Shown: one piece after another, positions 5,970 through 54,595 of the stretch
How positions within the stretch are numbered: position 1 is the first letter of the stretch
Layout of the letters: each line of letters opens with the position of its first letter
Virus record (IMG/VR): IMGVR_UViG_3300037047_000246
DNA: 64,000 nucleotides
Direction: 5' to 3' (one strand)
Source: a virus
Taxonomy: Duplodnaviria > Caudoviricetes
Position numbers and translations under genes: made by a program
The notes under the pieces: generated by a model
What the model saw: the letters and a program-made list of their open reading frames with translations, nothing else
What the model was told of the DNA's origin: nothing
Database searches by the model: none

Positions 5970-6368
5970 TCAGGACTCCTGGACGTCGTTCACGAACATG
6001 CTGAGCTGAACGTCCTCTGGAATGGCAGCTACCAGGCTGCGCACCAGCTCATTCAAATCGGCGTGTCTCAAGTGGTCAAATTTTTCAGTCAAAAGAGTCC
6101 GGCAAATGTCGCCGGACTCGAGACTGAGTGTCACCCATCCGCCTGGTGGGTGACTCAGCACCATGAGCACGACAAGTGTCGCATTCGGCAAACTGAATTC
6201 CGGCAAACGGAATCTCCACTCAATCTCAAGTTCAGTACTGCTGCTGACGACCAAGGAGCACAGTTCGGACGAATTTTCACCTGGCAGCACCAACTGCCGG
6301 GTGAATGACTCCAGTTTCTCCTTCATTTGCCTCTCGACGTCATGGCGAATCATGGAAGGACCATACAT
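5970..6368 (-). CDS. Hypothetical protein
   Basis: 132-aa ORF filling the gap; start uncertain. Confidence 0.4.
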   Translation of the reverse strand: MYGPSMIRHDVERQMKEKLESFTRQLVLPGENSSELCSLVVSSSTELEIEWRFRLPEFSLPNATLVVLMVLSHPPGGWVTLSLESGDICRTLLTEKFDHLRHADLNELVRSLVAAIPEDVQLSMFVNDVQES

Positions 6369-6421
6369 GCGAATTCTTCCGGTGTAAGGTCTGTGCTGAA
6401 CCGAATCAGCACAGAGGTCGA

Positions 6422-7378
6422 ATGGCTCACTTCATGTTTTGCGTGTCTGGCTACTCCGGCACAGGCAAAGACGAATTTTGCAAATGTTTGGTGGACAAAT
6501 ACGGCGCGGTCCACACTGGGCTCGCCGACCCGGCCAAACGCCACATGGCAGACGTGTACGGGTTCACCAAGCATCAGTTGTTCGGCCCTAGCGAAGCTAG
6601 GAACTCTGGCGATCCTAGATACCCCAAGACGCGCTTGATCCATCTAGGGGGTAGGCCGGCCGATGCTGCAGAGTTACTGCCGACAAGCACAAAATCGCCA
6701 CCGTATCCTAGGCTTGGATGGTGGCTATTTGACGTGACGCCGCAGTCAGCTTCTGAGGCCGGCCTGAAGTATGTGGCGCGCGGAGACAATTCTGCAGTTT
6801 TGGCCGGAGACAGGCACCTGCCGACTCAGTATTTGGGGAGAATGCAGACGCGGGTGTTTGTGCAAGACACAGACCCTGGATTCTTTCTGTCGCCCAGGGA
6901 AGCGCTGCAGCTGTACTGCGACCTCATGAACCAACTGGACATGTTCACTTGGGTACGCGCCGGCGTAAGCACGCATCGGAAACTGGCTGAGCTGCACGTC
7001 CAGGCCCGAGGCACCCGCATGCGTAGTCCTAAGTACGCGTACGATCGCATGCTCGGACTATGCATCAACAAGCGCGGAGAGGAGTGGGAAAGGGGGCTGA
7101 CTGAAGACGTGGTCACATGCTTCTCCGATTTCAGACACCGGCACGAAATTCAGTATGTGCGCCAGGCCGAAAAAACGCACGAAGACTTCAAACCGGTCCT
7201 GATTCGAGTCAAGCGTCCAGGGGTGGAGACGCCGCCGTTCAACCATAGGTCAGAGACCGAGCAGGCCACCATTCCAGATTCAGAGTTCGACTACGTGGTG
7301 GACAATAACGACACCATTGAGAGTTTGCACAAAGTGGCTGCCCAGATCGTGGAGCAAGTGAAAGGCGTTTCCAAATGA
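6422..7378 (+). CDS. Deoxynucleoside monophosphate kinase (T4 gp1-like P-loop)
   Basis: 'VSGYSGTGKD', 'LADPAKR', 'SPREALQ', 'SDFRHRHE', 'HRSETE', 'DYVVDNNDTIESL' are typical of phage dNMP kinases. Confidence 0.85.
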   Translation: MAHFMFCVSGYSGTGKDEFCKCLVDKYGAVHTGLADPAKRHMADVYGFTKHQLFGPSEARNSGDPRYPKTRLIHLGGRPADAAELLPTSTKSPPYPRLGWWLFDVTPQSASEAGLKYVARGDNSAVLAGDRHLPTQYLGRMQTRVFVQDTDPGFFLSPREALQLYCDLMNQLDMFTWVRAGVSTHRKLAELHVQARGTRMRSPKYAYDRMLGLCINKRGEEWERGLTEDVVTCFSDFRHRHEIQYVRQAEKTHEDFKPVLIRVKRPGVETPPFNHRSETEQATIPDSEFDYVVDNNDTIESLHKVAAQIVEQVKGVSK

Positions 7379-8328
7379 AAGTGGACCAAATTCTGCAAGC
7401 GTCAGAAATCGTGTCACACGCTGGTTGCCCTGACGGCATCGGAGCAGCCATGATTTGCGCTGCTGCGTTCGTGGGTGCCGGAATGAAACCACCTCCTACG
7501 AACTTCATCCAGTACGACACAAGAGGCCACGAAGGTATGGCTGTCCACCCAAGGCAGATATTTGCAGACATTACTCCCCCCAAAAGCCGGTGGGAAGAGT
7601 GGAAAGGCCTGTCGCCTATTGTGTTGGATCACCACGAAACGGTGCAGCACATTGTGCAGGCGCTCGGCGGTCAGTACGGCGGCCCGGACGAGTCTGGGTC
7701 CACTCTTGCCTTCGATAAAATAATGATGCCGTTGGCTGGCGACAGAATCGGGAAGGCTGCACTGGAGTCGTGGCGCACATTTGCTCACTTATGCATGACG
7801 AGGGACACTTGGAAAACCGCTTCGCCCGACTGGCCGGAGGCGTGCGCTCTGGCCCAAGCTCTTCTTCTGTACGGACACAGCTGGGCCGTGTCAGTGTCTT
7901 CGTTCGGAAGTCTTCCCATGGAAGAGTTGCTTGCAGTCGGCAGGAAAATGCACGACAAGATTATTCGGCAGTCTAAAGGAGTGACCAGATCGTCAGCCAA
8001 ATACGACGTCATACTGCCGTCAGGCACCATCAAATTGGCGTTTTTCAATCATGCCAACGGCGGGTCCATGAGCGACATCGCCCACTACATGATGGACGAG
8101 ATGCCGTGCGACGCTGTGGTTGGGTACTTCTATAAGCACGACAATGGGCAAACGCAGTGCGTAATGTCTGCAAGGACAAACGGCAGTTTCTCTGCTTCGG
8201 ATCTTGCCAGGTCTTTCGGCGGCGGCGGACATGCGAAGGCAGCTGGTTTTAGGCTCGATGGGAGCGTGTCGCCAGACGATGCCATTTCAGCGGTGCTGAA
8301 ACGCATCGTGGAGCTCAATCGGGCATAG
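7375..8328 (+). CDS. DHH/DHHA1-family phosphoesterase (nanoRNase-like)
   Basis: 'SHAGCPDGIGAA', 'LDHHET', 'SARTN', 'FGGGGHAKAAGF'. ATGA overlap with the kinase. Confidence 0.85.
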   Translation: MKVDQILQASEIVSHAGCPDGIGAAMICAAAFVGAGMKPPPTNFIQYDTRGHEGMAVHPRQIFADITPPKSRWEEWKGLSPIVLDHHETVQHIVQALGGQYGGPDESGSTLAFDKIMMPLAGDRIGKAALESWRTFAHLCMTRDTWKTASPDWPEACALAQALLLYGHSWAVSVSSFGSLPMEELLAVGRKMHDKIIRQSKGVTRSSAKYDVILPSGTIKLAFFNHANGGSMSDIAHYMMDEMPCDAVVGYFYKHDNGQTQCVMSARTNGSFSASDLARSFGGGGHAKAAGFRLDGSVSPDDAISAVLKRIVELNRA

Positions 8329-10818: not shown

Positions 10819-12144
10819 TCACTTGTGCTCGCCCACGGATGATGGGACGCACACTCGACACCACTGCATCAAGCTAGGCAGACTTTCAGCAGCTAGCTGG
10901 TACATCTTGTGCGCCACGCGACGGTAGGACATGTGCCCTTTCGGTGTTGTGCGCAGCTCTACGATATAGTACAGCTCCTTGAGCGACATCTGAAAACTGG
11001 ACCGGTGCAAGTAGCCTAGCGGCACTACGTACTGCGACAAATCCGTGTCGTAAGCGGCCTCTTCGTCGTAAGTCGACGCATAGTCCATGGCAGCCACGTA
11101 CTCCGGCTCCAACTCCGAGCCAGCAATGTCGTCTGGAATGATGTAGCCGTACTGCGTTGTCAGCGGCTCGGGGAACTGCTCGCACCGCCTGTGCCTCTGC
11201 AAATCGCGAAATGCTCCGAAATCCATCAGGACATCGAAAGTCAACACGATCGTTTTGAATACGTCCGGTACTTCGGCGTGTTCAGGCCTGGCCGACATGT
11301 GTTTGCAGAACATGTCCGGATTCATGCCGTATCGCTGCTCCACCAAATCGAAAAACTCTGGTTCTGCGTTTGCTGGCACTTTGGTGACCAAGTCCACATA
11401 CCAGTCGGGCCGCTCCATCGAAAACTTGTCCGACGTAGGCCCTAGCGATAGCACCCTCGGCTCGAACGTGTTGGGAGACGCGTGGCGCATCAATACCGGG
11501 CAGACGTCTGACACAGCGGACAAAATGCTTTTGCCGATCTGCACGACTTCAGGATTGGAATGACCCATCATGGTGGATACCAGGTCCCTGGCGTCTCTGA
11601 AATTCAAGACGCAAGCGACGTTTGTGCCTGTGCCGGCCGGCAGAAGATACCGAAGGTTGTCGAAAGCCCTGGCGCGAACGACTCTGTCCACCTGCGAGGG
11701 GTCCTCAGGGTCTCTGCCCATCAAGACCGCGCATCTCCTGACCATCGCATCGTGCAACTTGTCGTATGTGGCATACATGCGGCTGGCGAATGGCTTCATA
11801 GTCTCAGGGCCGCCTGGGGGCGTCACGAAACTGTCTTTGGAAAATCTCTGGTACCTGGTGCTTTTTTCTGAATAAGCGCCTCTCTGCATCGTTTCCACCA
11901 CTTTGGATGCCACTATGGACAGCCCCTCGATGCAAATAGGCACTGTCGCCAGTTCAGCGACGGAGCTATGCCCATAGCCGATTACCCACTTGTCGTGGAA
12001 TTTGCCAGACTCTTCTAGCGTGATGTTGCTCAAGATTTCTTTGGCAGACATCGGGGAACGGGAGTACTTGGCCAGCACAGTGGCCTGCACTGCTGGATCG
12101 AGCAGTTTTCCATCAGATCCCATCAAACAGAATACGTTAGGCAC
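10819..12144 (-). CDS. thyX: FAD-dependent thymidylate synthase, long two-domain form
   Basis: 'AKYSRS', 'YGHSSVAE', 'SEKSTRY', 'RYLLPAGT', 'RDLQRHR', 'ELRT..KGH.SYR'. GTG start at 12144 with GGAGG SD. Confidence 0.88.
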   Translation of the reverse strand: MPNVFCLMGSDGKLLDPAVQATVLAKYSRSPMSAKEILSNITLEESGKFHDKWVIGYGHSSVAELATVPICIEGLSIVASKVVETMQRGAYSEKSTRYQRFSKDSFVTPPGGPETMKPFASRMYATYDKLHDAMVRRCAVLMGRDPEDPSQVDRVVRARAFDNLRYLLPAGTGTNVACVLNFRDARDLVSTMMGHSNPEVVQIGKSILSAVSDVCPVLMRHASPNTFEPRVLSLGPTSDKFSMERPDWYVDLVTKVPANAEPEFFDLVEQRYGMNPDMFCKHMSARPEHAEVPDVFKTIVLTFDVLMDFGAFRDLQRHRRCEQFPEPLTTQYGYIIPDDIAGSELEPEYVAAMDYASTYDEEAAYDTDLSQYVVPLGYLHRSSFQMSLKELYYIVELRTTPKGHMSYRRVAHKMYQLAAESLPSLMQWCRVCVPSSVGEHK

Positions 12145-12298
12145 AGTTTCCTCCACACGAACACTGGCGTCTTGGCTCCGATTCCGACCTCCCCATCCTA
12201 CAGTCGAAAGCATTCCAAGCTAAGACTGCTGGAAATGCTCGAGCCAGGCGACAGCGAGTGGTGCCGGCAGAACCTGTGCGGACAAGTATTGTTTACGC

Positions 12299-13460: not shown

Positions 13461-14990
13461 ATGGTGGACTGGACTGACTTTTTAAACAAATCGGAAACTC
13501 TTCGGCAGTTCGGGTACTCTATGCCGGATAAAGATGCGCAGGACTGCTTCGCCAATTGTGCCTTGTGCAACGAAGCAATTCGCACCACGCGCAGGGCACT
13601 GCGCCGCACTGTGCGTAAAAGGTGTACGTACAGGTGCGGCCCATGCATTGCCAGATCCGACGAAGGTCGCCTAGCTCGATCGCGCCAAGCTAAAGCGGTG
13701 TGGGGAGATCCAGAGATTGCCCGCGCCATACAAGACAAGAACGCACAAAACGCCAGATCTGCGGCTGGCCGGCAGCAGCGCTCTATGCAAGCCAAACTTG
13801 CTTGGGCGACGCCAGAGTTTGCGAGGTTGCACAGAGCGCGCATAGCAACTTTGTTCAAATCGGCTGAACATCGCAGACTTGTTGCAGAGCGCAATAAGTC
13901 AGATTACGCGGCAAATCCGGAAGAATACCTGAAAACCAAGACAGCTGCGCTGCGCTCAGTGCAGGCCAAAGCGGCGCACAAAGCAGCTTTGGCCAAACCA
14001 GAGTACAAACAGCTGCATGCAGAACTGGCTCGAGCTCGTTTTCAAGATCCAGTTTACAAGGCCAAAATCGCTGCTGGGCTCGAAGGTTTCCCCCGCGGAG
14101 GGCGGCAGTCTGCGCCGGAAGTGGCTGTGCGAGATGTGTTGACTGGACTCGGTTGCGAATTCATCTACAACAAATCCCTAGGACCATATAACTTCGATTT
14201 TTTCATCGAGAAGCTAGATTTGTTCGTTGAAGTACAAGGTGAATACTGGCACACGTTGCCTAACAACGAACGCCGAGATAAAGCCAAGTATGCTTATTTG
14301 CGAAGCACCAGGCCCGCATCGAGGATAGTGTACATATGGGACTATGACCTGGTGACTGGCGCGGCTAGCGCTAAACTGGCACAAGCCGTCGGTGTGGCAT
14401 CTTTGCCAGTGCAAGACTTTTGTTTTCACGAAATAGCTTTAAGGGTTGTCGATTCGACGACGGCCAAGAATTTTCTCAACACCTGGCACTACGCACAATT
14501 TGGGAAATCGGGCAAATTCATAATCGGGGCATTTCTGGGTGACCAACTGGCGGCGGTAGCCAAACTGGGTCCAGTGTCACGCAAAGAAGTGGCCACTTCC
14601 CTAGGATCCAATCCTCGAGAAACATTTGAACTGGATCGACTGTGCATCCATCCTATGAGGCAAAAGAAAAACTTTGCTTCATACTTCCTTAGTCGAGTCA
14701 CCACACTGTTTTTCAACGCGTTTCCTGGTGCGATGCGCGTTGTTGCTTTTTCTGATGAGACGTTTGGGCACGACGGCACGGTGTATAAGGCCTGCAACTG
14801 GTCCCAAACGGGCACAGTGCGACCCGACTACATGTACGTGCGAAATGACGGTTGGTCTATGCACAAGAAAACGCTGTACAACCAAGCCCTCTCGGTGCAC
14901 ATGACCGAGAAGCAGTACGCGCAACAAAATGGATGGACGAAAGTGTTCGGCAAATGCAAGCACAAGTTCGTGCTTGAAAGGTCAAAGTAG
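13461..14990 (+). CDS. Free-standing endonuclease (DUF559/Vsr-like PD-(D/E)XK) with N-terminal helical repeats and a C-terminal GNAT/Mom-like domain (subfamily A)
   Basis: 'FDFFIEKLDLFVEVQGEYWH' nuclease core, then 'FLNTWHY...ELDRLC...VAFSDETFGHDGTVYKACNW'. Paralogous to 49345-51201. Confidence 0.75.
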   Translation: MVDWTDFLNKSETLRQFGYSMPDKDAQDCFANCALCNEAIRTTRRALRRTVRKRCTYRCGPCIARSDEGRLARSRQAKAVWGDPEIARAIQDKNAQNARSAAGRQQRSMQAKLAWATPEFARLHRARIATLFKSAEHRRLVAERNKSDYAANPEEYLKTKTAALRSVQAKAAHKAALAKPEYKQLHAELARARFQDPVYKAKIAAGLEGFPRGGRQSAPEVAVRDVLTGLGCEFIYNKSLGPYNFDFFIEKLDLFVEVQGEYWHTLPNNERRDKAKYAYLRSTRPASRIVYIWDYDLVTGAASAKLAQAVGVASLPVQDFCFHEIALRVVDSTTAKNFLNTWHYAQFGKSGKFIIGAFLGDQLAAVAKLGPVSRKEVATSLGSNPRETFELDRLCIHPMRQKKNFASYFLSRVTTLFFNAFPGAMRVVAFSDETFGHDGTVYKACNWSQTGTVRPDYMYVRNDGWSMHKKTLYNQALSVHMTEKQYAQQNGWTKVFGKCKHKFVLERSK

Positions 14991-16181
14991 CGAAATCATG
15001 TCTGCGTGGTCAGCGCCTGTGCCGATCAGCACTACGGGGACGTTGGCTGCAGCTTCAATCCTGTCCACCATCGACCTTGTTTTGGAGGATAGTTTATTGA
15101 ACGCTTCCCTTCCTCCGCGAAGGCCGTGATCGCGCCAGTCCAAATACTGCACGAAATTCAGCGCCAGCTTTGTTGCGCCGTTCGTTGCGACAGCGTCTTC
15201 CAAACCCACCCAAGAGAACGTGCAAACACGTCGCACCCTCTTTGTGACTGTCGTCCTTTCGCGCTCCATGAGTGCAGCTGCCTCTTCGTCTGGCATTCCA
15301 GCTTCCTGTGCTATTTGCTGCCAGGTCAGCTCTTTGCAGTCAGTGTAGAAATCGCCAGAGTACCCCGTCTGCACGCCGTTCTCCTGCACGTTGCCGACTC
15401 GGATGCCAAAAGTACGGAGATTCAGGTATACGTCGCCCACCATGGAAGCTGGCACTGCCATGTCGTCCATGGCCTTTTGGGCGGTGCAGTTGCGCGAGGT
15501 GCAGTGCGGGTAGCTGGAGCCATGGTCGACGGACAAGGCGTATCCTTGGGAACCTTCATGCAGCCAAGTGTTGCCCGCCTTGATCAGACCTTGCACGCTC
15601 GACCTGAACTGCATGCCGTCCAAAATGCGCACTCTGGACTCAAACTCGTGCATGAGCTCGAGCATGCCTGGTCTAGCATGTCCTGTCCATTCAGCCACTT
15701 GTTTGGACCCAACAAGCAGGCATTCCTTCCTGCGCAGAATCTTGTCCACCATGGACGCGGAGCACCCCTGCATCGTGGAAGCGATATGTTTGGTTGACCC
15801 GGAGCCGTTTCTTTCTTGCTCCGCATGGTCCGGAGTGACGACGGAAGCCCTGCTGTGTAGGCACAAACTAGGTCTGCCTGTTTCCACCCATTCGTCGAAC
15901 AGCCTATCCCATGTGCCTTGCTCGGTCACGGTCAGTCCGGAGGCCGGAGACAGCCACCCCTGCATGTTGACGCCTTTGGCCTTCCGAAGTGCCAAAGCAG
16001 TGGGGATGGCTTTCGCCACGAACTTGTAGTTGCCAGACAAGAACGTGTGGCCTGCGTTGGGGAAATTCGAAGACGAGACGTGGCTGACGCCGTACGCGTC
16101 TGCCAGCCAAGCGGACACCTTGCCTTTGCCGGACGATCCCCAGAACCCGTCTAACAAAATGTTGAACTTGCCAGGTTGCAT
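14982..16181 (-). CDS. purZ: Adenylosuccinate-synthetase homologue with PurZ-type (2-aminoadenylosuccinate synthetase) signatures
   Basis: 'WGSSGKGK' (Ser in place of the PurA catalytic Asp of WGDEGKG), 'NAGHT', 'EGSQG', 'YPHCTSR', 'RTFGIRVGN', 'TTVTKRVRRV', and 'LNFVQY' in place of PurA TKLD. Confidence 0.75.
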   Translation of the reverse strand: MQPGKFNILLDGFWGSSGKGKVSAWLADAYGVSHVSSSNFPNAGHTFLSGNYKFVAKAIPTALALRKAKGVNMQGWLSPASGLTVTEQGTWDRLFDEWVETGRPSLCLHSRASVVTPDHAEQERNGSGSTKHIASTMQGCSASMVDKILRRKECLLVGSKQVAEWTGHARPGMLELMHEFESRVRILDGMQFRSSVQGLIKAGNTWLHEGSQGYALSVDHGSSYPHCTSRNCTAQKAMDDMAVPASMVGDVYLNLRTFGIRVGNVQENGVQTGYSGDFYTDCKELTWQQIAQEAGMPDEEAAALMERERTTVTKRVRRVCTFSWVGLEDAVATNGATKLALNFVQYLDWRDHGLRGGREAFNKLSSKTRSMVDRIEAAANVPVVLIGTGADHADMISLL

Positions 16182-16510
16182 TATTTTTCCTCCGGCGAGG
16201 CCGGTTTGTGCGACGTTTGCTCAGAATCTGCAGAAAACATCACCATCCCTTTGTACTCTCTGACCCCTGAAACGCCATCGGACGAGACGTCCTGGCCCTC
16301 CGGTTCGTACACCGCCAAGACCAGCTCGCCCGGACCAAGCGAGTTGCCGCTGTCCTCGGCCAGCTGCTGCAGCAGCTGGCCGAGCGTACCCCCGGTGCGC
16401 AACGACAGCAGCTCCGGCACGTCTCTTTGCCAACCGCCGGCGCCGAGGTACCAGGTACCTTCTGGGGCCGAGTACATGTCGTTAATCTGTATCACTGCCA
16501 GTTTCAACAT
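16181..16510 (-). CDS. Hypothetical protein coupled upstream of the purZ-like gene
   Basis: The stop (TAA) overlaps the purZ ATG; 109 aa. Confidence 0.6.
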   Translation of the reverse strand: MLKLAVIQINDMYSAPEGTWYLGAGGWQRDVPELLSLRTGGTLGQLLQQLAEDSGNSLGPGELVLAVYEPEGQDVSSDGVSGVREYKGMVMFSADSEQTSHKPASPEEK

Positions 16511-22720: not shown

Positions 22721-22960
22721 ATGATCGCGCTTTGCCCCAAATGTGCCAAGCCCATGGAGCCGCTTGGGCAAGTGAACCGCATGGCGTGCTTTAGCTGCCG
22801 ATGTATCTTCGATGTTAGAATAACAGTAGACATCGAAGAGGTTTTCAGCAGTGACAAAGACGCCAACTTTGACGCGGACAGAGCAGTTCGAGGAGCTTCG
22901 CCGCCTAATCTTTTGCCCGCCGACTGCAGCCGTGTTGACGGGGCCAGAGAAGACGGGTAA
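22721..22960 (+). CDS. Small CxxC-CxxC protein
   Basis: CPKC..CFSC, abutting the previous stop. Overlaps the next gene by 110 nt. Confidence 0.4.
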   Translation: MIALCPKCAKPMEPLGQVNRMACFSCRCIFDVRITVDIEEVFSSDKDANFDADRAVRGASPPNLLPADCSRVDGAREDG

Positions 22961-23624
22961 ATGGCGCACCGCTGTGCAGGTGTCGGAGTTTGCAGGCCTT
23001 AGTGACGTCCTGCAAGTCGACGGGTCCATAGATGGAGCGCGTCAAGCGGCTTCATTTTTGAAGTCCATGCCGCTTGACGGCGTTGTGAGATTGGTCGTGG
23101 TAGACGGCCGGTCCGGCATATCAGAACCTGCGCAGGACGCCTACCTGAAAACTTGCGAAGAGACGCCAGAATTTGCCTCAATTCTGTTCGTGGCGGAAGA
23201 CGCGAACTTGCTGCGGCCCGCGCTGCTGTCTCGCTTGACCGTGCTGCATTGGTCTGCTGCCACCGCGGACGAGGTGCGCGCAACGACAGAAGTTGACGAC
23301 TTCGTTGCGACTATGTTGCGAGGAAGGACTGAACTTTGCCAGACTGCGACTAAAAATGCTGTCGCGCTGCGCGCACTGTACGACGCTGCAATTGACCTGG
23401 CGAACAGCTCACTAGACCTGACCAGGGCGCCGTCCATGCTGACCGAGTGGTCCAAACTGGACGATGACTGCAAGAAAGCAGCCATTTTGGCGTGCGAAGC
23501 TGCGGCCGCGCATGCGCTAGAAGCACCGCGTTTGACGTCTCTGCTTCTTTTTGTAGACGTGCTTAGGACCTGCCCGTCTGCAAATGTTGAAGTCCATTGG
23601 TGGCGAGCCTGCATGGCGGTGTAA
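22851..23624 (+). CDS. holB: DNA Pol III clamp-loader delta'-like subunit
   Basis: 'VLTGPEKTGK', 'AQDAYLKTCEETP', 'LRPALLSRL' (HolB LLPTIRSRC-like). Confidence 0.7.
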   Translation: MTKTPTLTRTEQFEELRRLIFCPPTAAVLTGPEKTGKWRTAVQVSEFAGLSDVLQVDGSIDGARQAASFLKSMPLDGVVRLVVVDGRSGISEPAQDAYLKTCEETPEFASILFVAEDANLLRPALLSRLTVLHWSAATADEVRATTEVDDFVATMLRGRTELCQTATKNAVALRALYDAAIDLANSSLDLTRAPSMLTEWSKLDDDCKKAAILACEAAAAHALEAPRLTSLLLFVDVLRTCPSANVEVHWWRACMAV

Positions 23625-24556
23625 TGTGCTTTGCGGTGAGCACTTTAATCATTGTTAACGGGGACGACGACTTCCTGAAAGAGCGTGCAGCTCTTGACGA
23701 GTCGGCTATGAGTCTGGCGCCTTCTGTTCAGCATTTTTCGCTGAAGAGCGACGCTGAAAAGTATGCCGAGTGGCTTGACATGATTCCGATCGGAGGCGTC
23801 TGCACTTTGGTGCTGTGGGATGCTACAGAAGTGCCGGATTTGCCGTCTGACGGCACTGTCGTTTTGGTTGCCGCAAAAGGCAAAACCATTCACAGTGCAC
23901 GTGCTAAGCGCGAAGTCGAAGTCAAAAAACCCAAGCCGTACGACGACGGAGCAGAGTACGTGCGATGGATTCTGAAGGAAGGCGAGCGGCTTAACATAGA
24001 TCTAAGCATGATTGCCGTCGCACTTTTTTGGAACTGTGGGACGGACCTACGGAAGATATGCTCAGAGATCACGAAGATCAAAGTGCTGGTGGGTCCCGGA
24101 GGCACCGCTGAACCATCTTTGGCTCGGCGCGTCATGTGCTTTTCCGCTGAACTAACCCCTAAACATGTTATCGATGCTGTGTGTGAAGGTCATCCAGCTA
24201 AAGCCATCGCCTTCTACGATAGGCTGCAAGAAGGGGGATGCGAGACGGGATGGATAATAGCATACATGCAGCGTCATGCTATTCAGCAGTTACGTGCGGA
24301 GCTGTTGCTGAAGTCCGGGCACACGGTGGAGCAGGTGGCCGCTGCTTTCGGCTCACATCCGGCGTTCGTGAGGAGTAACATCCTTCCTAAGCTTGGTCTG
24401 TGGAGCATTTCTTCTTTGCGCTTTAGCCTTGACACCCTGTGCAGTCTTGATCTGAAGCACAAGCGCGGCACAGATGTTTCTCGATGGGGACTGGAACCAG
24501 AAATCATACGTTTGTCCGAGGAGGCCAAACACAATGTCACAAGTCGTCGAAGTTGA
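23624..24556 (+). CDS. holA: DNA Pol III clamp-loader delta-like subunit
   Basis: 'LIIVNGDDDFLK', 'GTDLRKICSEITKI', 'LCSLDLKHKRG...WGLE' match the HolA layout. TAATG coupling to holB. Confidence 0.75.
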   Translation: MCFAVSTLIIVNGDDDFLKERAALDESAMSLAPSVQHFSLKSDAEKYAEWLDMIPIGGVCTLVLWDATEVPDLPSDGTVVLVAAKGKTIHSARAKREVEVKKPKPYDDGAEYVRWILKEGERLNIDLSMIAVALFWNCGTDLRKICSEITKIKVLVGPGGTAEPSLARRVMCFSAELTPKHVIDAVCEGHPAKAIAFYDRLQEGGCETGWIIAYMQRHAIQQLRAELLLKSGHTVEQVAAAFGSHPAFVRSNILPKLGLWSISSLRFSLDTLCSLDLKHKRGTDVSRWGLEPEIIRLSEEAKHNVTSRRS

Positions 24557-27305
24557 GCGTTGCAATGTTGTTGAGCTGCAGCGTCCGACCGCAGCAAAGG
24601 AAGCTGAGTCCGCTGGCCGTTGGACCAGATTTTTCACAAAGGAAGAAGTACACCCTTTTGACGAAATCCGGTGGAAGATTACCGATGCCAGGATAGTCAG
24701 CTCTGACGGCGTTGTCGTGTTTGAGCAGCTCGGAGTTGAGGTGCCTGATTGGTGGAGCGTCAACACGATCAACATCGTTGCTGACAAATACTTCCGGGTG
24801 ATTGATGGAGAGAAAGAAAACTCCGTCAAGCAAATGATCTTTCGAGTTGCGGTAGTCATGCGTAAGTGGGCTGCGGAGCAGGGTTATTTCAACTCTGATC
24901 ACGACGCCCAAGTCTATGAAGACGAACTGTGCTACGTGCTTCTGCACCAGTACGGAGCATTCAACTCGCCCGTCTGGTTCAACATCGGAGTGCCTGGTCG
25001 CAAGCAACAAGCCTCCGCTTGTTTCATTTCTAGCGTCGACGACACGCTTGACGCCATCATGGAGTTTCAGAAATCTGAAGTCAAAATTTTCGCTGGCGGT
25101 TCTGGTTCTGGCGGAAACTTGTCCAACTTGCGCTCGTCTTGGGAACGTCTGTCGTCTGGTTCATATGTGTCTGGCACGCTGGCATGGATGGAGGGCTTCG
25201 ACAAATTCGCCAAGGCCATGAAGTCCGGCGGCAGCACGCGCAACGCGGCCAAGATCATTGTGCTGGATATGGACCACCCAGACATCCTTGAAACAAAGGA
25301 CGGCCGCCCCGGATTTATTCGTTGCAAAGCGGCCTCGGAGAAAATTGCCCAGGACCTGGCTGCTCTGGGCTACGGCGTGGCCTACGACGATCCAAATTCA
25401 GTTTACAAGCTTGTGCCGTTCCAGAACGCCAACCATTCGGTCAGCGTCGACGATGCCTTCATGAAAGCTGTGGTCGACGACAAAGAATGGTGCACTGTGG
25501 AACGCACGACAGGCAAGGTTGTGCACACTTACAAAGCGCGCGACATGTGGCGCGAAGTGGCAGAAGCTGCTTGGACTTGCGGCGATCCAGGCATTCAGTT
25601 CACAGATACGATCAACGATTGGCATACCACTCCAGCTGCCGGTCGCATTCGTTCAAGTAACCCGTGTGCTGAATATCTCAACATAGACAACACAGCTTGC
25701 AACCTGGCGGCTATCAATCTGACAAAATTCTTTGACGGCCGAAAATTGGCGACAGACCGCTTGGCGCATGTGGTGCGTGTGCTAGTGACGGCGCAAAATG
25801 CCATAATTGCCATGGCCGAGTATCCGACGCAGGCTATCGCTGACAACTCGATCAAGCTGCGACCGATCGGGCTGAACTATGGCAACCTTGGGTCGCTCAT
25901 CATGAAGCTCGGATATGGCTACAATTCGGACGAGGGGCGGGCTGTTGCTGCTCGCACAGCGAGCTTGATGACAGGCATGGCGTATGTGGCGGCAGCAAAG
26001 TTGGCTTCCCGCATCGGTGCCTTCCCTGCTTTCCATGACAACAGGGAGCCCATGCTTGGCGTCATTGCTAAACATGCCGCTGCTGATGCCGACGTTTGCC
26101 AGCGCTGGAGTTTGCATCATGACCCGCTGGGGAAAGACGTCAAATCGTGCAGTGCATCCATATGGCGCGAAGCGCTAGAGCTCGGCCGCAAATATGGCTA
26201 CTCGGTGTCTCAAACTACGCTGCAGGCGCCGCTCGGCACGCTGTCGTTTTTGATGGAGATGGACACGACTGGCGTCGAGCCCATGTTCTCTCTGGTTACC
26301 TACAAATCTCTGGTCGGCGGCGGGGCGCTCAAACTGGTGAACTCGGCAGTGCTAGGTGCTCTGGAAGGTCTAGGGTACTCTAAGTCGCAGATTGAAGTCA
26401 TCTGCAAGTACATTGAGACCAATGACTACATAGAGGGAGCGCCTGGCCTCAATCCAAAGCATCTGCCTGTGTTCGACGGCGCCATGGCTTGCGGCCCCTC
26501 TGGCAGACACTTGTCTCCGATGGCGCATGTGGATATGTTGGCGGCCATCCAACCGCTCATCACTTGCTCCATCAGCAAAACTGTCAACCTAGCTAAAAAC
26601 ACCACTCCAGAGGAAATCGCCGACATTTACCTGCAGGCTTGGAAGCTCGGGGTCAAGTGCATCGCACTGTATCGGGACGGCAGCAAGATGTCGCAGCCTC
26701 TCGTAACAAAGACTTCTGAAGCTCCCACCGTGTCAATCGCGCCTCCTAGCGAGGAGGCGACACGACGCCGGCATCTGCCCGCGGATTTGGAAGGACACCG
26801 GCATCGGTTCACCATGGGCGGCTGCAAAGGGTATATCATGATGAACGAATACCCGGACGGCAGTTTGGGCGAGGTGTTCTTGCGTCTCGGCAAGACCGGC
26901 ACGACAATGGCTGGATTTATCGATGGGTTCACGCAGCTGCTTAGCATTTCTCTTCAGTATGGCGTGCCGCTAGACAAGATGATCCGATCGTTCGTGCATA
27001 CGAAGTTCGAACCGTCTGGGTTTACAGACAATCCGCAGATCCGGTTCGCCGACAGTCTGTTCGATTACCTGTTCAAACTGCTCGACATACGATATTTCGA
27101 AGGTCGCAACTCAGGCTTGGCAGACAAACTTGCGGCGATGGCATCTGAATCCGAGGACGCCGGCTCGCTGCCGCCGGTGTCCATGCCGGCTCCTGAACCG
27201 GTCAACGTCAGCGCCCCCATCTGTCCCAACTGCGGCAGCATGACGCGCCGGGTCGGCACCTGCCACCTGTGTGCGACGTGTGGAACAAGCACTGGATGCA
27301 GCTGA
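24534..27305 (+). CDS. nrdJ: Class II (B12-dependent) ribonucleotide reductase with C-terminal TSCPD domain and zinc ribbon
   Basis: 'FNSPVWFN', 'ASACFI', 'GSGSGGNLS', 'SSNPCAEY', 'TACNLAAINL', 'RPIGLNY', 'ISKTVN', 'LYRDGSK', C-terminal CPNCG..CATCG. GAGGAGG SD. Confidence 0.95.
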   Translation: MSQVVEVERCNVVELQRPTAAKEAESAGRWTRFFTKEEVHPFDEIRWKITDARIVSSDGVVVFEQLGVEVPDWWSVNTINIVADKYFRVIDGEKENSVKQMIFRVAVVMRKWAAEQGYFNSDHDAQVYEDELCYVLLHQYGAFNSPVWFNIGVPGRKQQASACFISSVDDTLDAIMEFQKSEVKIFAGGSGSGGNLSNLRSSWERLSSGSYVSGTLAWMEGFDKFAKAMKSGGSTRNAAKIIVLDMDHPDILETKDGRPGFIRCKAASEKIAQDLAALGYGVAYDDPNSVYKLVPFQNANHSVSVDDAFMKAVVDDKEWCTVERTTGKVVHTYKARDMWREVAEAAWTCGDPGIQFTDTINDWHTTPAAGRIRSSNPCAEYLNIDNTACNLAAINLTKFFDGRKLATDRLAHVVRVLVTAQNAIIAMAEYPTQAIADNSIKLRPIGLNYGNLGSLIMKLGYGYNSDEGRAVAARTASLMTGMAYVAAAKLASRIGAFPAFHDNREPMLGVIAKHAAADADVCQRWSLHHDPLGKDVKSCSASIWREALELGRKYGYSVSQTTLQAPLGTLSFLMEMDTTGVEPMFSLVTYKSLVGGGALKLVNSAVLGALEGLGYSKSQIEVICKYIETNDYIEGAPGLNPKHLPVFDGAMACGPSGRHLSPMAHVDMLAAIQPLITCSISKTVNLAKNTTPEEIADIYLQAWKLGVKCIALYRDGSKMSQPLVTKTSEAPTVSIAPPSEEATRRRHLPADLEGHRHRFTMGGCKGYIMMNEYPDGSLGEVFLRLGKTGTTMAGFIDGFTQLLSISLQYGVPLDKMIRSFVHTKFEPSGFTDNPQIRFADSLFDYLFKLLDIRYFEGRNSGLADKLAAMASESEDAGSLPPVSMPAPEPVNVSAPICPNCGSMTRRVGTCHLCATCGTSTGCS

Positions 27306-33025: not shown

Positions 33026-33139
33026 TGTCGCGCTAGGCTCTTTGTCCAATACCGTACAATGGAAACGTCCATACATCTGTAATATTCCCAGGTGCGGTCT
33101 GTAAGACTGCTTGGGATAGCTGACGTGGAGCGATCGCAC

Positions 33140-33634
33140 ATGAAATTGTCGACTCAAGATGAAGACCGTGGGCTGGTGCGTACTGCGGCAGCTGACCAAG
33201 ATGCTGAGTGGCAGAGGGTAAACTCCTACATTGCCGATGTCCTTAAGGACTGCTACGTTTTGTTTGCCAAACTCGCCCGGTTGCGCGGGGATTTTGCTGG
33301 GTCGGAGCTAGGGAAGCTCGACGGCATTTCCGGCAAGGTTCGAGATCTTGGTCAAGAGCTCGCTGGCTTCTCCAAGTCCTTTACCGAGGGCGAGTATTCG
33401 ATGGACAAGAAGGAGCAGTTTGGCGACCAGGGCGCCGCTGATGAGTTCGACATGCCTGCTGATTTCGAACCCACTGCTGAAGACTTCGACTTTTCTACAG
33501 AAGATGGCGGGCAAGGCGGGCAAGGCGGGCAAGGCGGTGAAGAAGACTTCGAATCTCCCCCCGAGGACGGCCAGGGTGAAGAGGAAGATTTTGAGTCCCC
33601 GCCTGAGGATGAAAAGTCAGATAAAAAAGACTGA
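33140..33634 (+). CDS. Hypothetical protein with an acidic low-complexity tail
   Basis: GGAG SD; tail with (GGQ)x3 and EEDFESPPED x2. Confidence 0.7.
   Translation: MKLSTQDEDRGLVRTAAADQDAEWQRVNSYIADVLKDCYVLFAKLARLRGDFAGSELGKLDGISGKVRDLGQELAGFSKSFTEGEYSMDKKEQFGDQGAADEFDMPADFEPTAEDFDFSTEDGGQGGQGGQGGEEDFESPPEDGQGEEEDFESPPEDEKSDKKD
33506..33538 (+). repeat. 9-bp tandem repeat (GGCGGGCAA)x3 plus a partial unit, in-frame GGQ
   Basis: Read directly from the sequence. Confidence 0.85.
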
Positions 33635-36732: not shown

Positions 36733-36756
36733 ACGCGAGTGTAATGTGGTTTGCCT

Positions 36757-45028: not shown

Positions 45029-45041
<13 letters not shown>
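44814..45041 (+). CDS. Small hypothetical protein
   Basis: 75-aa ORF in the operon. Confidence 0.55.
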
Positions 45042-46393
<1,352 letters not shown>

Positions 46394-51380: not shown

Positions 51381-52220
51381 ATTGCAACGCCTAAAGATTG
51401 CTCGATACGTCGAGACTTGTCCGAGAGGCTGCAAAAAGTGGAGCCGACTCAGGGATTGCAACGCCTAAAGATTGCTCGATACGTCGAGACTTATACGGCT
51501 GACCGGGCAGACTGCGCCGCGCCACTATTGCAACGCCTAAAGATTGCTCGATACGTCGAGACGCTCCAGTGGGGCGTGGCTCGCCACGTTTCCCATGTAT
51601 TGCAACGCCTAAAGATTGCTCGATACGTCGAGACGCCCTATCGCTCTCTCGTTCACACCCATCCTCCTAATTGCAACGCCTAAAGATTGCTCGATACGTC
51701 GAGACCTTGCTGTGCCGCAGCAGCTGGCGGCAGCTGCGGCCAAATTGCAACGCCTAAAGATTGCTCGATACGTCGAGACATTCCGCAGCCACTTGACTCG
51801 CCTGTCAAGCTCCACTCATTGCAACGCCTAAAGATTGCTCGATACGTCGAGACGATTCCGCGCACAGAGCCCTAGCCTCAGCACGGGTGTAATTGCAACG
51901 CCTAAAGATTGCTCGATACGTCGAGACCCTCCATCACCACAAGCAACATCGCCACTGCCCGCACATTGCAACGCCTAAAGATTGCTCGATACGTCGAGAC
52001 CCTAGCCTGGATTTGAGCATGGCGATCGCCGAACGCGAGATTGCAACGCCTAAAGATTGCTCGATACGTCGAGACATAGCCTCAATCTCTGGCCTATCAT
52101 CGAGCGCAGATACTGCAACGCCTAAAGATTGCTCGATACGTCGAGACAAGCACATGCTACCCCGCTGTAACCGTGCGTCGCAAAATTGAAATACCCAAAG
52201 ATTGCTCGATACGTCGAGAC
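51381..52220 (+). CRISPR. CRISPR array: 12 repeats of 36 nt (ATTGCAACGCCTAAAGATTGCTCGATACGTCGAGAC) and 11 spacers of 35-39 nt
   Basis: Repeats start at 51381, 51455, 51527, 51599, 51670, 51744, 51818, 51892, 51965, 52040, 52112 (1 substitution) and 52185 (4 substitutions). Spacer lengths are 38, 36, 36, 35, 38, 38, 38, 37, 39, 36, 37. The 3' hairpin is CTCGA-TACG-TCGAG, ending in AC. Confidence 0.99.
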
Positions 52221-52303
52221 ACGGAACCGAGGACGATCTCGAGATGTCGAGACACGTCGACCAGACCCGCGGAAATTTGACGCGGTCCGTTGTAATGCTA
52301 ATC

Positions 52304-54595
52304 ATGGCAAAAGCGAAGACATTGGCGGCGCTGCTGCGCGAACTTCTCCCTGGCCAGCATTTGGCACCCCATCATAGGTGGGTGGCGAACAAGTTGCTGA
52401 TGACGTCAGGTGATGCCGCGGCTTTTGTGATCGGCAAGAGCGTCTCCGATCCTGTTCGGGGCTCCTTCAGGAAGGACGTGATCACGAAGGCCGGCAGGAT
52501 TTTCAAAAAAGATGGGCCGGACGCCGCCGCCGCCTTTCTGGACGGAAAATGGGAAGACAGGCCGCCGAATTTTCAACCCCCCGCGAAGGCAGCCATCGTG
52601 GCCATCAGCCGCTCTTTCGATGAGTGGCCAATCGTCAAAGTCTCTTGTGCCATTCAGCAGTACCTGTACGCGCTGCCAGTTCAAGAGTTTGAGTCTAGCG
52701 TGCCGGAAGCTAGAGCACAGGCTCACGCGGCGTGGTTTCAAGACACTGGCGTGGACGATTGCAACTTCAAGTCTACGCAGGGCCTGAACGCGATCTTCAA
52801 CCATGGCAAGCGCACTTACGAAGGTGTGTTGAAGAAGGCACAAAACAGGAATGATAAGAAAAACCTCCGCTTGGAGCGCATCAACGCCAAGCGCGCGGAA
52901 GCCGGACAGGCTCCTCTGGTCGCTGGCCCTGATGAGTCTCCTACAGACGATGCCGGGTGTTTGTTGCATCCGCCAGGCATAAATGCAAACATATACTGTT
53001 ATCAGCAGGTTTCCCCGAGGCCTTACGAACAGTCATGCGGCATTCAGCTTCCGCCGGAGTATGCCGGATATAACCGGTTGTCGAATGTTGCGATTCCACC
53101 GATGCCGAATCGCCTGGATATCCCTCAAGGCCAGCCGGGATACGTGCCGGAGCACCACAGGCATGGTATCAAGAAGTTCGGCCGAGTCCGCAAGAGGTAT
53201 GGCGTGGTGCCAGGACGGAACAGAGATGCGGATGGCAAGCGCACGCGCCAGGTTCTAACCGAAGCCGGCGCCGCAGCCAAAGCCAGAGATTCGGTTCTCG
53301 CTGTGATCCGCATCGGTGATGACTGGACAGTAGTCGATTTGCGCGGCTTGCTGAGAAATGCGCAGTGGCGCAAGCTTGTGCCAGATGGCGGCATCACTGT
53401 CCAGGGTCTGCTTGATCTTTTCACTGGCGATCCGGTGATCGATCCTCGGCGCGGCGTGGTGACTTTCATTTACAAGGCTGATTCTGTAGGGATACATTCC
53501 GAGAAGGTTTGTCGTGGTAAACAGTCGAAGAACCTGCTGGAGCGCCTATGTGCAATGCCTGAAAAAAGCTCGACACGTCTAGACTGCGCGAGGCAAGCAG
53601 TGGCTCTAGTGTCTGTGGACTTGGGGCAGCGCAATCCAGTCGCAGCAAGATTTTCCAGAGTTTCCCTCGCAGAGGGGCAACTTCAGGCGCAGCTGGTCAG
53701 TGCGCAGTTCCTTGACGACGCGATGGTGGCAATGATCCGAAGCTATCGCGAGGAGTATGACCGCTTCGAATCGCTCGTGCGAGAGCAAGCAAAAGCGGCT
53801 TTGTCGCCCGAACAACTGAGCGAGATTGTCAGGCATGAAGCGGACTCAGCAGAGTCGGTTAAATCCTGCGTCTGTGCGAAGTTCGGTATCGATCCGGCCG
53901 GACTTTCGTGGGATAAAATGACATCGGGTACATGGCGCATTGCCGATCATGTTCAGGCGGCAGGCGGCGACGTCGAGTGGTTCTTCTTCAAAACTTGCGG
54001 CAAAGGCAAAGAAATCAAAACGGTGCGACGCAGTGATTTCAACGTGGCGAAGCAGTTCCGGCTGAGGCTCTCGCCCGAAACTCGCAAAGACTGGAACGAT
54101 GCCATTTGGGAATTGAAGCGTGGGAACCCTGCGTATGTCAGTTTTTCTAAGCGCAAGTCGGAATTCGCTCGCCGCGTCGTGAATGATTTGGTGCATCGGG
54201 CGCGGCGCGCTGTTCGATGCGACGAGGTCGTCTTTGCAATCGAAGATTTGAATATCTCTTTCTTCCACGGCAAAGGCCAGCGCCAGATGGGGTGGGATGC
54301 CTTTTTTGAAGTGAAACAGGAGAATCGATGGTTTATTCAGGCGCTGCATAAGGCGTTTGTCGAGCGAGCTACGCACAAGGGCGGCTATGTCTTGGAAGTG
54401 GCTCCTGCCAGGACGAGCACGACTTGTCCGGAGTGTAGGCATTGTGATCCGGAGAGCAGGCGTGGTGAGCAGTTCTGTTGTATCAAATGCCGTCACACGT
54501 GCCACGCGGACTTGGAAGTGGCCACATTCAATATCGAGCAGGTGGCGCTTACAGGTGTGTCTTTGCCGAAGCGCCTTTCAAGTACGCTTTTGTAG
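52304..54595 (+). CDS. cas12j: Type V CRISPR effector, CasPhi (Cas12j) family, 763 aa
   Basis: RuvC-I 'VSVDLGQRN', RuvC-II 'AIEDLN', RuvC-III 'HADLEVATFNI', Zn ribbon 'CPECRHC...CIKC'. CasPhi-like motifs 'PPNFQPPAK', 'SRSFDEWP', 'PPGINANIYCYQQVSP', 'DLRGLLRN', 'LFTGDPVIDP', 'ENRWFIQALHKAF'. The ORF-track start at 52202 lies inside the last repeat and is artefactual. Confidence 0.95.
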   Translation: MAKAKTLAALLRELLPGQHLAPHHRWVANKLLMTSGDAAAFVIGKSVSDPVRGSFRKDVITKAGRIFKKDGPDAAAAFLDGKWEDRPPNFQPPAKAAIVAISRSFDEWPIVKVSCAIQQYLYALPVQEFESSVPEARAQAHAAWFQDTGVDDCNFKSTQGLNAIFNHGKRTYEGVLKKAQNRNDKKNLRLERINAKRAEAGQAPLVAGPDESPTDDAGCLLHPPGINANIYCYQQVSPRPYEQSCGIQLPPEYAGYNRLSNVAIPPMPNRLDIPQGQPGYVPEHHRHGIKKFGRVRKRYGVVPGRNRDADGKRTRQVLTEAGAAAKARDSVLAVIRIGDDWTVVDLRGLLRNAQWRKLVPDGGITVQGLLDLFTGDPVIDPRRGVVTFIYKADSVGIHSEKVCRGKQSKNLLERLCAMPEKSSTRLDCARQAVALVSVDLGQRNPVAARFSRVSLAEGQLQAQLVSAQFLDDAMVAMIRSYREEYDRFESLVREQAKAALSPEQLSEIVRHEADSAESVKSCVCAKFGIDPAGLSWDKMTSGTWRIADHVQAAGGDVEWFFFKTCGKGKEIKTVRRSDFNVAKQFRLRLSPETRKDWNDAIWELKRGNPAYVSFSKRKSEFARRVVNDLVHRARRAVRCDEVVFAIEDLNISFFHGKGQRQMGWDAFFEVKQENRWFIQALHKAFVERATHKGGYVLEVAPARTSTTCPECRHCDPESRRGEQFCCIKCRHTCHADLEVATFNIEQVALTGVSLPKRLSSTLL

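Follow-up and report, generated by a model that had tools for sequence, protein, structure and literature searches.

A divergent PurZ-type synthase and a candidate 2-aminoadenine route in a CasPhi-bearing huge phage

We analysed a 64,000-nucleotide stretch of DNA, hereafter called the window, from a virus of the Caudoviricetes (IMG/VR record IMGVR_UViG_3300037047_000246), and in particular its gene for a PurA-fold protein of 399 amino acids (aa). An earlier note, made from the letters of the window, had read this protein as a PurZ-like enzyme and proposed that the phage may replace adenine (A) with 2-aminoadenine (Z). Judged from its sequence, the protein belongs to a large, uncharacterised branch of the Ser-type PurZ group (2-aminoadenylosuccinate synthases with Ser in place of the catalytic Asp of PurA, in the sense of PMC12884076), a branch that is common in huge phages. 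It very probably performs PurZ-type chemistry. The best explanation of the data, which we hold to be probable, is a PurZ-type synthase in a largely phage-supplied Z route, and we lean, with somewhat more reserve, towards a genome that is largely Z-substituted. Most of this route could come from the phage itself, which is unusual.

Fold and active site of the PurZ-like enzyme

The window covers positions 201348-265347, read on the minus strand, of a 362,524-bp virus record with direct terminal repeats and a completeness rating of 100%. Coordinates refer to the window, unless given as genome positions. The PurZ-type synthase gene (14982..16181, minus strand), assigned by PF00709, by PurZ-state residues and by its place in the Ser-type clade, is confirmed as an intact open reading frame (ORF) for a protein of adenylosuccinate-synthetase fold (PF00709, E 9.5e-29), and a structure model of it finds its best PDB matches among PurZ and PurA. 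The closest solved relatives in sequence are PurZ of phages phiVC8 (7e-31) and S-2L (6.5e-27). Weaker matches were obtained with the archaeal short PurA of Pyrococcus (5e-20) and with PurZ0 (4e-12), and the weakest with bacterial and eukaryotic PurA (about 1e-9 and weaker; bacterial, about 1e-9 to 1e-10). An AlphaFold2 model computed with 40 homologues in the input had a pLDDT of 95.4. Foldseek searches with this model returned 6fko, 6tnh, 6fm1 and 7odx as top matches, phiVC8 and S-2L PurZ coming first, Pyrococcus PurA and PurZ0 close behind, and the long bacterial PurAs well behind. The best PHROG is phrog_1211, annotated as PurZ-type synthetase (7e-45), the best NCBIfam model is PurZ (NF038379), and scores with purA equivalog models lie far under their cut-offs. 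No homologue more than 32% identical to the protein was found among GenBank phages, and no second PF00709 gene was found in the genome.

Motifs D-G-F-W-G-S16-S-G-K-G-K, T310-T-V-T-K-R-V-R-R-V and N342-F-V-Q-Y346 are all present as first described. Ser16 occupies the site of the PurA catalytic Asp13. TTVTKRVRR stands in place of the PurA loop TTGR, whose Arg303 touches aspartate and the 2'-OH of the ribose, and NFVQY in place of the guanine-specific (N/T)KxD motif. Among the residues whose roles were described in phiVC8 PurZ (bioRxiv 10.1101/2025.10.22.683976), S14, T262, F295, Y298, W252 and Y244 are all kept, and S273 is Thr, as it is in S-2L. W252 and Y244 are the positions that best separated dZ-associated from canonical enzymes in the metaGPA study. 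With the residue roles of the S-2L pocket and loop as a guide (PMC8342488), 20 of the 23 dGMP-pocket and Asp-loop positions are in the PurZ state. The TTVT aspartate loop (T310-T313) is identical to T262-T265 of phiVC8 and T273-T276 of S-2L. F343 and Y346 of the N-F-V-Q-Y motif correspond to the ATP-stacking pair F295/Y298 of phiVC8, a member with S-2L and SH-Ab 15497 of the ATP-using PurZ subgroup. Finally, V241 of S-2L is kept as V262, and the insertion after R-V-G is present and longer than in S-2L PurZ; in PurZ, this insertion presses Val against C2', disfavouring ribonucleotides.

The ATG of the gene is preceded by a GGAGGA Shine-Dalgarno sequence, and overlaps the TAA of an upstream ORF as TAATG. 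Homologues in other phages (P0122, P0123 and P0124, of 786-1197 aa) contain one or two LAGLIDADG inteins, elements that tend to lie in indispensable genes of replication and nucleotide metabolism. We considered and rejected the possibility that the gene is a relic or inactive, given 42 invariant columns in 40 sequences, the good Shine-Dalgarno sequence, the translational coupling and the inteins in homologues.

Position within the Ser-type family

Homologues of the protein are numerous: more than 1000 were found at E<=1e-10, and those at E<=1e-30 form 178 clusters at 50% identity. In IMG/VR, 349 stretches carry a homologue, many of them on contigs of 150-436 kb. Among 270 collected homologues, Ser stands at the Asp13 site in all of the approximately 250 with a readable P-loop motif, and the only Asp in this survey was that of two true PurA controls.

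A careful tree of 54 rows was built (LG+C20 PMSF, supports given as UFBoot/SH-aLRT), with bacterial Asp-type PurA and divergent Asp-type copies from metagenome-assembled genomes (MAGs) as outgroup. A genome scan with alignment A1, made for the Asp-type outgroup, returned only Ser-type copies. The change from Asp to Ser had been taken as a mark of PurZ or PurZ0. In the tree, the query falls in a Ser-type clade (100/99), apart from bacterial Asp-type PurA. PurZ0 is the first of the Ser-type rows to branch off, and the query is nested within the clade, after the PurZ0 split; quick trees agree. Classical PurZ sequences, from phiVC8, S-2L, DMU1, BCSR129 and metagenomic loci with adjacent DpoZ, MazZ or DatZ genes, are united in one clade of 12 rows. 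The query is found outside it, in a separate clade of 28 rows (97/99) rich in huge phages. Within the latter, a 20-row clade (98/93) joins three branches, one of which is the query's own. In one sister branch (L071), the gene is followed by MazZ-like and YfbR-like HD genes, and in the other (L047, L049, Sorangium So ce131 and Chondromyces apiculatus) by a gene for a dUTPase-domain, DutZ-like protein with an N-terminal extension. On a 36.7-kb viral contig (L076), a purB homologue lies directly upstream of the PurZ-like gene, and a DutZ-like gene comes after it.

Ser16, the TTVT loop, the F/Y stacking pair, the insertion and the Ser-type clade all agree with the PurZ-like, ATP-type reading of the earlier note. 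Residues and tree position together support an enzyme that would be PurZ-like, neither PurZ0-like nor PurA.

Ser-type copies are also present in cellular genomes. Canonical PurA is kept besides the Ser-type copy in four of the five genomes concerned (Sorangium, Chondromyces and MAGs G034 and G035), and the fifth (MAG G033) has a divergent Asp-type PurA only. Since these bacteria and MAGs also keep an Asp-type PurA, the Ser-type copy appears as an extra, specialised paralogue. Two of the carriers are cultured myxobacteria, Sorangium sp. So ce131 (L107, chromosome of approximately 9.767 Mb) and Chondromyces apiculatus DSM 436 (L106, contig18), with genes 43% identical to the query. In both, the gene is directly followed by that of a 253-aa protein with a C-terminal dUTPase domain, and genes for HNH and ERCC4 nucleases are nearby at the Sorangium locus. 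These loci resemble a Z cluster carried by a prophage, in hosts that can be cultured, and could offer an experimental handle on the enzyme branch of the query. A large Ser-type group with a G-S-C-G-K-G P-loop, approximately 30% identical, occurs on contigs binned to MAGs of gut Clostridia, Bacilli and 'Tenericutes' (L108-L163), which may be prophages or mis-binned phages; in one gut Bacillota MAG, a Ser-type homologue and a canonical PurA are on the same 398-kb contig.

Two further phages deserve mention. The 735-kb genome of an uncultured phage (LR756503.1, L015), to our knowledge the largest described phage genome, encodes an Asp-type G-D-E-G-K-G PurA (approximately 345.3-346.5 kb) which groups with bacterial PurA. 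Huge phages therefore hold both PurA and PurZ-type enzymes, and annotation should not lump them. The cultured Bacillus phage vB_BpsS-140 (L006) has a Ser-type enzyme (G-S-E-G-K-G), in the sister group of the huge-phage clade. EcoRI was reported to cut the DNA of this phage and DraI (TTTAAA) not to cut it (PMC6483233), an anecdotal observation that could hint at modified A or T.

Partner genes in the complete genome

The usual partners of PurZ (HD-domain DatZ, MazG-like MazZ and polymerase DpoZ) had not been recognised in the window. They are indeed missing from it, and HD, MazG-fold and MazZ-like genes are present elsewhere in the complete genome; a DpoZ-type polymerase was found in neither. 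The search of the genome for datZ, mazZ and DUF550 returned a DatZ/YfbR-like HD-MazG pair and a MazZ-like protein, and no DUF550. Profiles for MazG (PF03819) and DUF550 (PF04447) had no match in the genome, and the MazG-fold genes were detected by a phmmer query with S-2L MazZ, by weak Pfam and PHROG matches, and by fold.

The HD protein (211 aa, genome 46220-46855) matches PF12917 (3.9e-18), and its best PHROG is phrog_7076, 'dATP triphosphohydrolase' (3.9e-16). The DatZ metal ligands (H34, H66, D67, D119, E70, D75) and phosphate ligands (R19, K81, K116) are all kept. The gene immediately downstream (genome 46855-47622) was assigned by fold match: its core model has a pLDDT of 74, and nearly all of its top 40 or so Foldseek matches are DCTPP1, iMazG, MazG or HisE-type folds. 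A MazZ identity was rejected for this protein after hhalign against S-2L MazZ gave a 49% probability, and it is called MazG-fold here. The HD and MazG-fold genes form an operon-like pair that is adjacent in 5 of 5 related huge phages tested.

A second MazG-like protein, the MazZ-like one (genome 345912-346418), has S-2L MazZ (7ody, E 1.1e-3) as its best match in the whole PDB, and the BLASTP alignment with 7ody is short and weak (37% over 60 aa). It keeps W15, I16, E34, E35, E38, D53, I56 and D60, and not K31. In MazZ, I56 and D60 are the guanine determinants, and E34, E35, E38 and D53 the acidic ligands (PMC8342488). Approximately 5 kb away, next to a sigma-70-family gene, is a purB gene (genome 351119-352570; L009:13120-14571). 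Its product matches TIGR00928 with 418 bits for a cut-off of 326, and 1f1o with 2.6e-117, and qualifies by the curated equivalog cut-off as a bona fide adenylosuccinate lyase. A nucleoside diphosphate kinase (NDK) gene lies at approximately 81.2-81.6 kb of the genome.

The window had also been credited with a dNMP kinase and a ribonucleotide reductase (RNR). The latter is confirmed, a class II (B12) enzyme of 943 aa with a TSCPD domain (24474..27305, plus strand; PF02867 2.2e-112, PF08471, PF12637). The kinase is a borderline candidate of 357 aa (6305..7378, plus strand), weakly assigned by PF21448 (DNMK) with 27.4 bits for a cut-off of 27.1. The sole recognised replicative-type polymerase in the genome is a family-A enzyme (PolA) with a 3'-5' exonuclease (genome 55695-58679), whose nearest structures are Klenow and Taq.

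We also compared 14 near-complete records of huge phages bearing PurZ (G000-G029), and found that YfbR-like HD and dUTPase genes have complementary distributions. Members of the close clade carry the YfbR-like HD gene, and all but one have no dUTPase. More distant phages, whose enzyme is approximately 42% identical, have no YfbR-like gene, and most of them have one or two dUTPase-family genes; two of the 14 records have neither. None of the seven close-clade genomes has an NDT/DmtZ gene (PF05014), and the genome analysed here has no dUTPase-family gene. This pattern echoes the known split among Z phages between DatZ/MazZ and DutZ. We give it little weight, because dUTPases are common in phages.

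Proposed route to Z

From the fold, the PurZ-state residues, the clade, and the presence of the partner genes and their conservation among relatives, all of which were established from sequence, structure model and tree, we infer the substrate of each enzyme, the union of the scattered genes in one pathway and the presence of Z in the packaged DNA. The class II RNR would supply dNDP or dNTP, including dGTP, and the MazZ-like protein would act as a pyrophosphohydrolase converting (d)GTP to dGMP. From dGMP, aspartate and ATP, the PurZ-type enzyme would make dSMP, which the phage PurB would split into dZMP and fumarate. The putative dNMP kinase and NDK would then raise dZMP to dZTP. Meanwhile, the DatZ/YfbR-like HD hydrolase and the MazG-fold enzyme would lower the pool of dA nucleotides, and the family-A polymerase would build Z:T pairs into the 362-kb genome. 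The partner genes found outside the window lend support to the replacement of A by Z that was first proposed from the synthase.

Evidence weighed and alternative functions

A number of observations, on the enzyme as well as on its partners, weigh against a Z genome. Identity to characterised PurZ is only approximately 30%. The NCBIfam PurZ model gives 170.7 bits, far under its curated cut-off of 300, and the archaeal PurA model (NF003295) comes close with 161 bits, so that by profile the protein is an outlier of the PurZ/short-PurA superfamily, outside the narrow PurZ model. Foldseek barely separates PurZ from Pyrococcus PurA (1.8e-26 versus 3.6e-25), and the main gap of the phylogeny is that archaeal short PurA of the Asp type is not in the tree. 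Three family-typical positions deviate: F12 of phiVC8 is Trp (W14), as it is in PurA, P233, which is kept nearly family-wide, is Gly (G259), and the third is H226.

These three residues, together with the low identity to any assayed enzyme and the score under the PurZ cut-off, would also suit a branch with an undescribed substrate or product, such as the conversion of GMP to 2-aminoadenosine nucleotides or the use of another 6-oxopurine, with a role in RNA, cofactors or signalling. We regard this as very unlikely. The deoxy-selective features are kept (Val262 with the insertion, and no equivalent of Arg303), the genes next door in sister branches encode enzymes of dNTP and dNMP metabolism, and positive evidence for another substrate was not found.

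PurA-fold enzyme and PurB are also what an ordinary auxiliary module from IMP to AMP would look like. The phage would then keep canonical DNA, the two enzymes performing the textbook two-step AMP branch from IMP (dIMP) to AMP (dAMP), and the HD and MazG-fold proteins being pool housekeeping. The PurB is a bona fide one, purine-metabolism genes are frequent in huge phages (PMC7162821), and the 735-kb phage LR756503 does carry a true Asp-type PurA. The nearly equal scores with the PurZ and archaeal PurA models would fit as well, and the HD protein keeps everything that Escherichia coli YfbR keeps. As YfbR is a dNMP nucleotidase, the conserved ligands do not separate DatZ from such nucleotidases. 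Several features speak against purine supply. True PurA conserves Asp13 at 99% (PMC12884076), and the query and all homologues with a readable P-loop have Ser at this site. An ATP-stacking F/Y pair stands where PurA has its GTP motif, the TTVT loop of PurZ takes the place of the TTGR/Arg303 loop, and the insertion pushing Val against C2' is present. Moreover, the cellular carriers Sorangium, Chondromyces, G034 and G035 keep a canonical PurA besides their Ser-type copy (G033 only a divergent Asp-type one), and sister branches link the gene to dATP- and dGTP-hydrolase genes typical of Z phages. We thus consider supply of ordinary purines improbable, if somewhat less so than a novel substrate.

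The remaining observations that tell against a Z genome concern the pathway. Genes of the proposed route are spread over more than 300 kb, with purZ approximately 200 kb from the HD-MazG pair, and do not form a Z cluster. At the specificity sites, the HD protein has Y20 and T22, and not the W20 and I22 of DatZ, where W20 contacts the deoxyribose and Ile22 excludes the 2-amino group. Six relatives have Y or F together with S at these sites. The small residue at 22 might fail to keep Z out. This HD type was found on 13 IMG/VR contigs only, all from the clade of the query, so that its co-occurrence with purZ amounts to about one evolutionary event. The MazG-fold protein is nearest to dCTPase and iMazG, S-2L MazZ ranking 49th, and the MazZ-like protein was not found in the five relatives searched. 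Of the 7 genomes of the clade, 4 encode PurB, and three complete relatives lack it; NDK and the MazZ-like gene, too, are each absent from some complete genomes. Finally, PolA is not of the DpoZ type: it is 23% identical to phiVC8 DpoZ, and scores 59.6 bits with NF038380 (cut-off 500) and 22 bits with NF038381 (cut-off 350).

Such features would suit a more limited use of Z, in which dSMP and dZMP are made and Z replaces A partially, or in which the phage uses Z nucleotides, or the depletion of dGMP and dATP, for another purpose, such as to poison the replication of host or competitor or to escape a defence that senses nucleotides. In that case too, the chemistry has the support of the PurZ-state residues, and the exclusion side is weak, with an HD enzyme devoid of Ile22, no DpoZ-type polymerase, and PurB, NDK and MazZ-like genes that vary among close relatives. 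However, S-2L is fully substituted without DpoZ, by dATP removal (PMC8065100). The Y20-T/S22 combination was reported to be prevalent on contigs that were physically enriched for dZ and resisted a dZ-selective restriction cocktail, and every complete close relative retains the HD and MazG-fold pair. We hold such partial or diverted use to be unlikely, although it is the least unlikely of the alternatives, and prefer a PurZ-type synthase in a largely phage-supplied route. That the whole clade of CasPhi-bearing huge groundwater phages (approximately 360-436 kb) packages fully Z-substituted DNA through a self-encoded, dispersed pathway is a bolder proposal, about which we are nearly evenly divided and slightly doubtful.

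Comparison with known systems

The enzyme shares with phiVC8 and S-2L PurZ (6FM1/6FKO and 7ODX) the short PurA fold, Ser at the Asp13 site, the TTVT loop, the F/Y pair and the Val with its insertion. It differs from them by its distance (approximately 30% identity, a separate clade), by approximately 45-55 additional residues, by Trp for Phe12 and by Gly for Pro233. Moreover, its gene is not clustered with datZ and mazZ, and resides in a genome of 362 kb, versus approximately 40-45 kb for phiVC8 and S-2L. PurZ0 of the Gordonia phages Ghobes and Archimedes (7VF6), whose partners are DutZ and DmtZ, belongs to the same Ser-type group, and DutZ-like genes adjoin sister branches of the query clade as they do PurZ0 genes. 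Yet PurZ0 is basal in the tree, matches more weakly (4e-12), and in Ghobes has Gln at the position of Tyr346; unlike PurZ0 systems, the genome analysed here is devoid of dUTPase-family and NDT-family genes. The short PurA of Pyrococcus horikoshii (5K7X/2D7U) has the same short fold, with a TM-score of approximately 0.76 when normalised by model length and 0.89 by target length; it differs by its catalytic Asp and its use of IMP and GTP, where the query has Ser16, and an F/Y motif in place of the GTP motif.

Concerning the partners, likeness to S-2L DatZ (6ZPA) and MazZ (7ODY) consists in the retained HD ligands, in 7ODY being the best PDB match of the MazZ-like protein, and in the adjacency of HD and MazG-fold genes; S-2L is also devoid of DpoZ. 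The differences are Y20/T22 instead of W20/I22 in the HD protein, an adjacent MazG-fold protein that is dCTPase/iMazG-like, a MazZ-like gene placed elsewhere in the genome and not conserved in relatives, and the absence of DUF550.

Neighbouring genes, replication genes and CRISPR system

The ORF upstream of purZ and translationally coupled to it through the TAATG overlap encodes 109 aa (16181..16510, minus strand); Pfam and PHROG searches gave no match. On the other side, a convergent gene for a Vsr-like nuclease with a Mom/GNAT-family domain (509 aa; 13461..14990, plus strand; PF25680 Mom 1.7e-21, and PHROG homing/HNH endonuclease families) overlaps the purZ stop by 9 nt at its 3' end. Such a gene also adjoins purZ in four relatives (L020, L022, L043 and L081). 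It is probably a mobile gene of the homing-endonuclease type, and we take it as a passenger, not a pathway enzyme. Fusions of a Vsr/MTES_1575-type nuclease with a Mom/GNAT-family domain are encoded by at least six paralogous genes of the phage: besides 13461-14990(+), they are found at 27269-28954(+), 31085-33199(-), 36751-38553(+) and 49345-51201(+), and at L010:9418-11124, that is, genome 47417-49123. Each abuts a nucleotide-metabolism or replication gene, namely purZ, RNR, helicase or the HD-MazG pair. These paralogues look like homing endonucleases carrying a Mom-like domain. Mom of phage Mu modifies adenine at N6, so that Mom-like domains would be curious in a Z genome.

Other genes of the window include a DHH/DHHA1 phosphoesterase of 317 aa coupled to the candidate kinase (7375..8328, plus strand; PF02272 2.6e-10) and a ThyX-family thymidylate synthase homologue of 464 aa (10819..12213, minus strand; PF02511 9e-33), which we take as background nucleotide metabolism. 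A Pol III-type replisome had been described as well. Clamp-loader subunits (delta', delta and tau/gamma-like) are indeed encoded by the window (22851-24556 and 45029-46393), and Pol III alpha (PF07733) was not found in the genome, so that the description holds for the clamp-loader genes only. The Cas12j (CasPhi) effector named in the earlier note is confirmed. This protein of 797 aa (52202..54595, plus strand) matches CasPhi-2 (7lys) with 8.9e-189 over residues 88-791 and has a TNB domain, and a CRISPR array is found directly upstream of its gene (51381..52220, plus strand), with 12 copies of a 36-nt repeat at a spacing of approximately 73 nt.

Discussion

Known Z phages have a compact purZ cluster with datZ and mazZ or with dutZ, and rely on the PurB and GMP kinase of their host (PMC8342488; bioRxiv 10.1101/2025.10.22.683976). 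Those found in the literature and GenBank records that we searched are all small, approximately 38-68 kb. The phage analysed here differs from them in five respects: its PurZ branch is divergent, its genome measures 362 kb, the genes are dispersed, PurB is encoded by the phage and the HD enzyme is a variant. Surveys of PurZ homology have already predicted more than 2000 Z viruses (PMC13128860); our prediction thus extends known work, and is not a new principle. In the literature searched, we found no report linking PurZ with huge or jumbo phages.

The divergent PurZ branch appears to be a standing feature of huge phages, CasPhi carriers included, and the label 'adenylosuccinate synthase' given to such genes of huge phages in metagenomes probably names the wrong function. 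If the proposed route is correct, base replacement would extend to the largest phage genomes, and no known Z genome would come near these in size. This would be the first phage to bring its own adenylosuccinate lyase to the Z route. It would also add new enzyme variants for Z-DNA: the PurZ branch itself, a Y20/T22 HD hydrolase, and a polymerase not of the DpoZ type that would necessarily accept dZTP. Finally, it would be relevant to how these phages escape restriction and CRISPR, and to the question whether Z-DNA is cut by Cas12j: Z-DNA would possibly shield the phage from the nucleases of its host and from its own Cas12j, while Cas12j attacks competitors.

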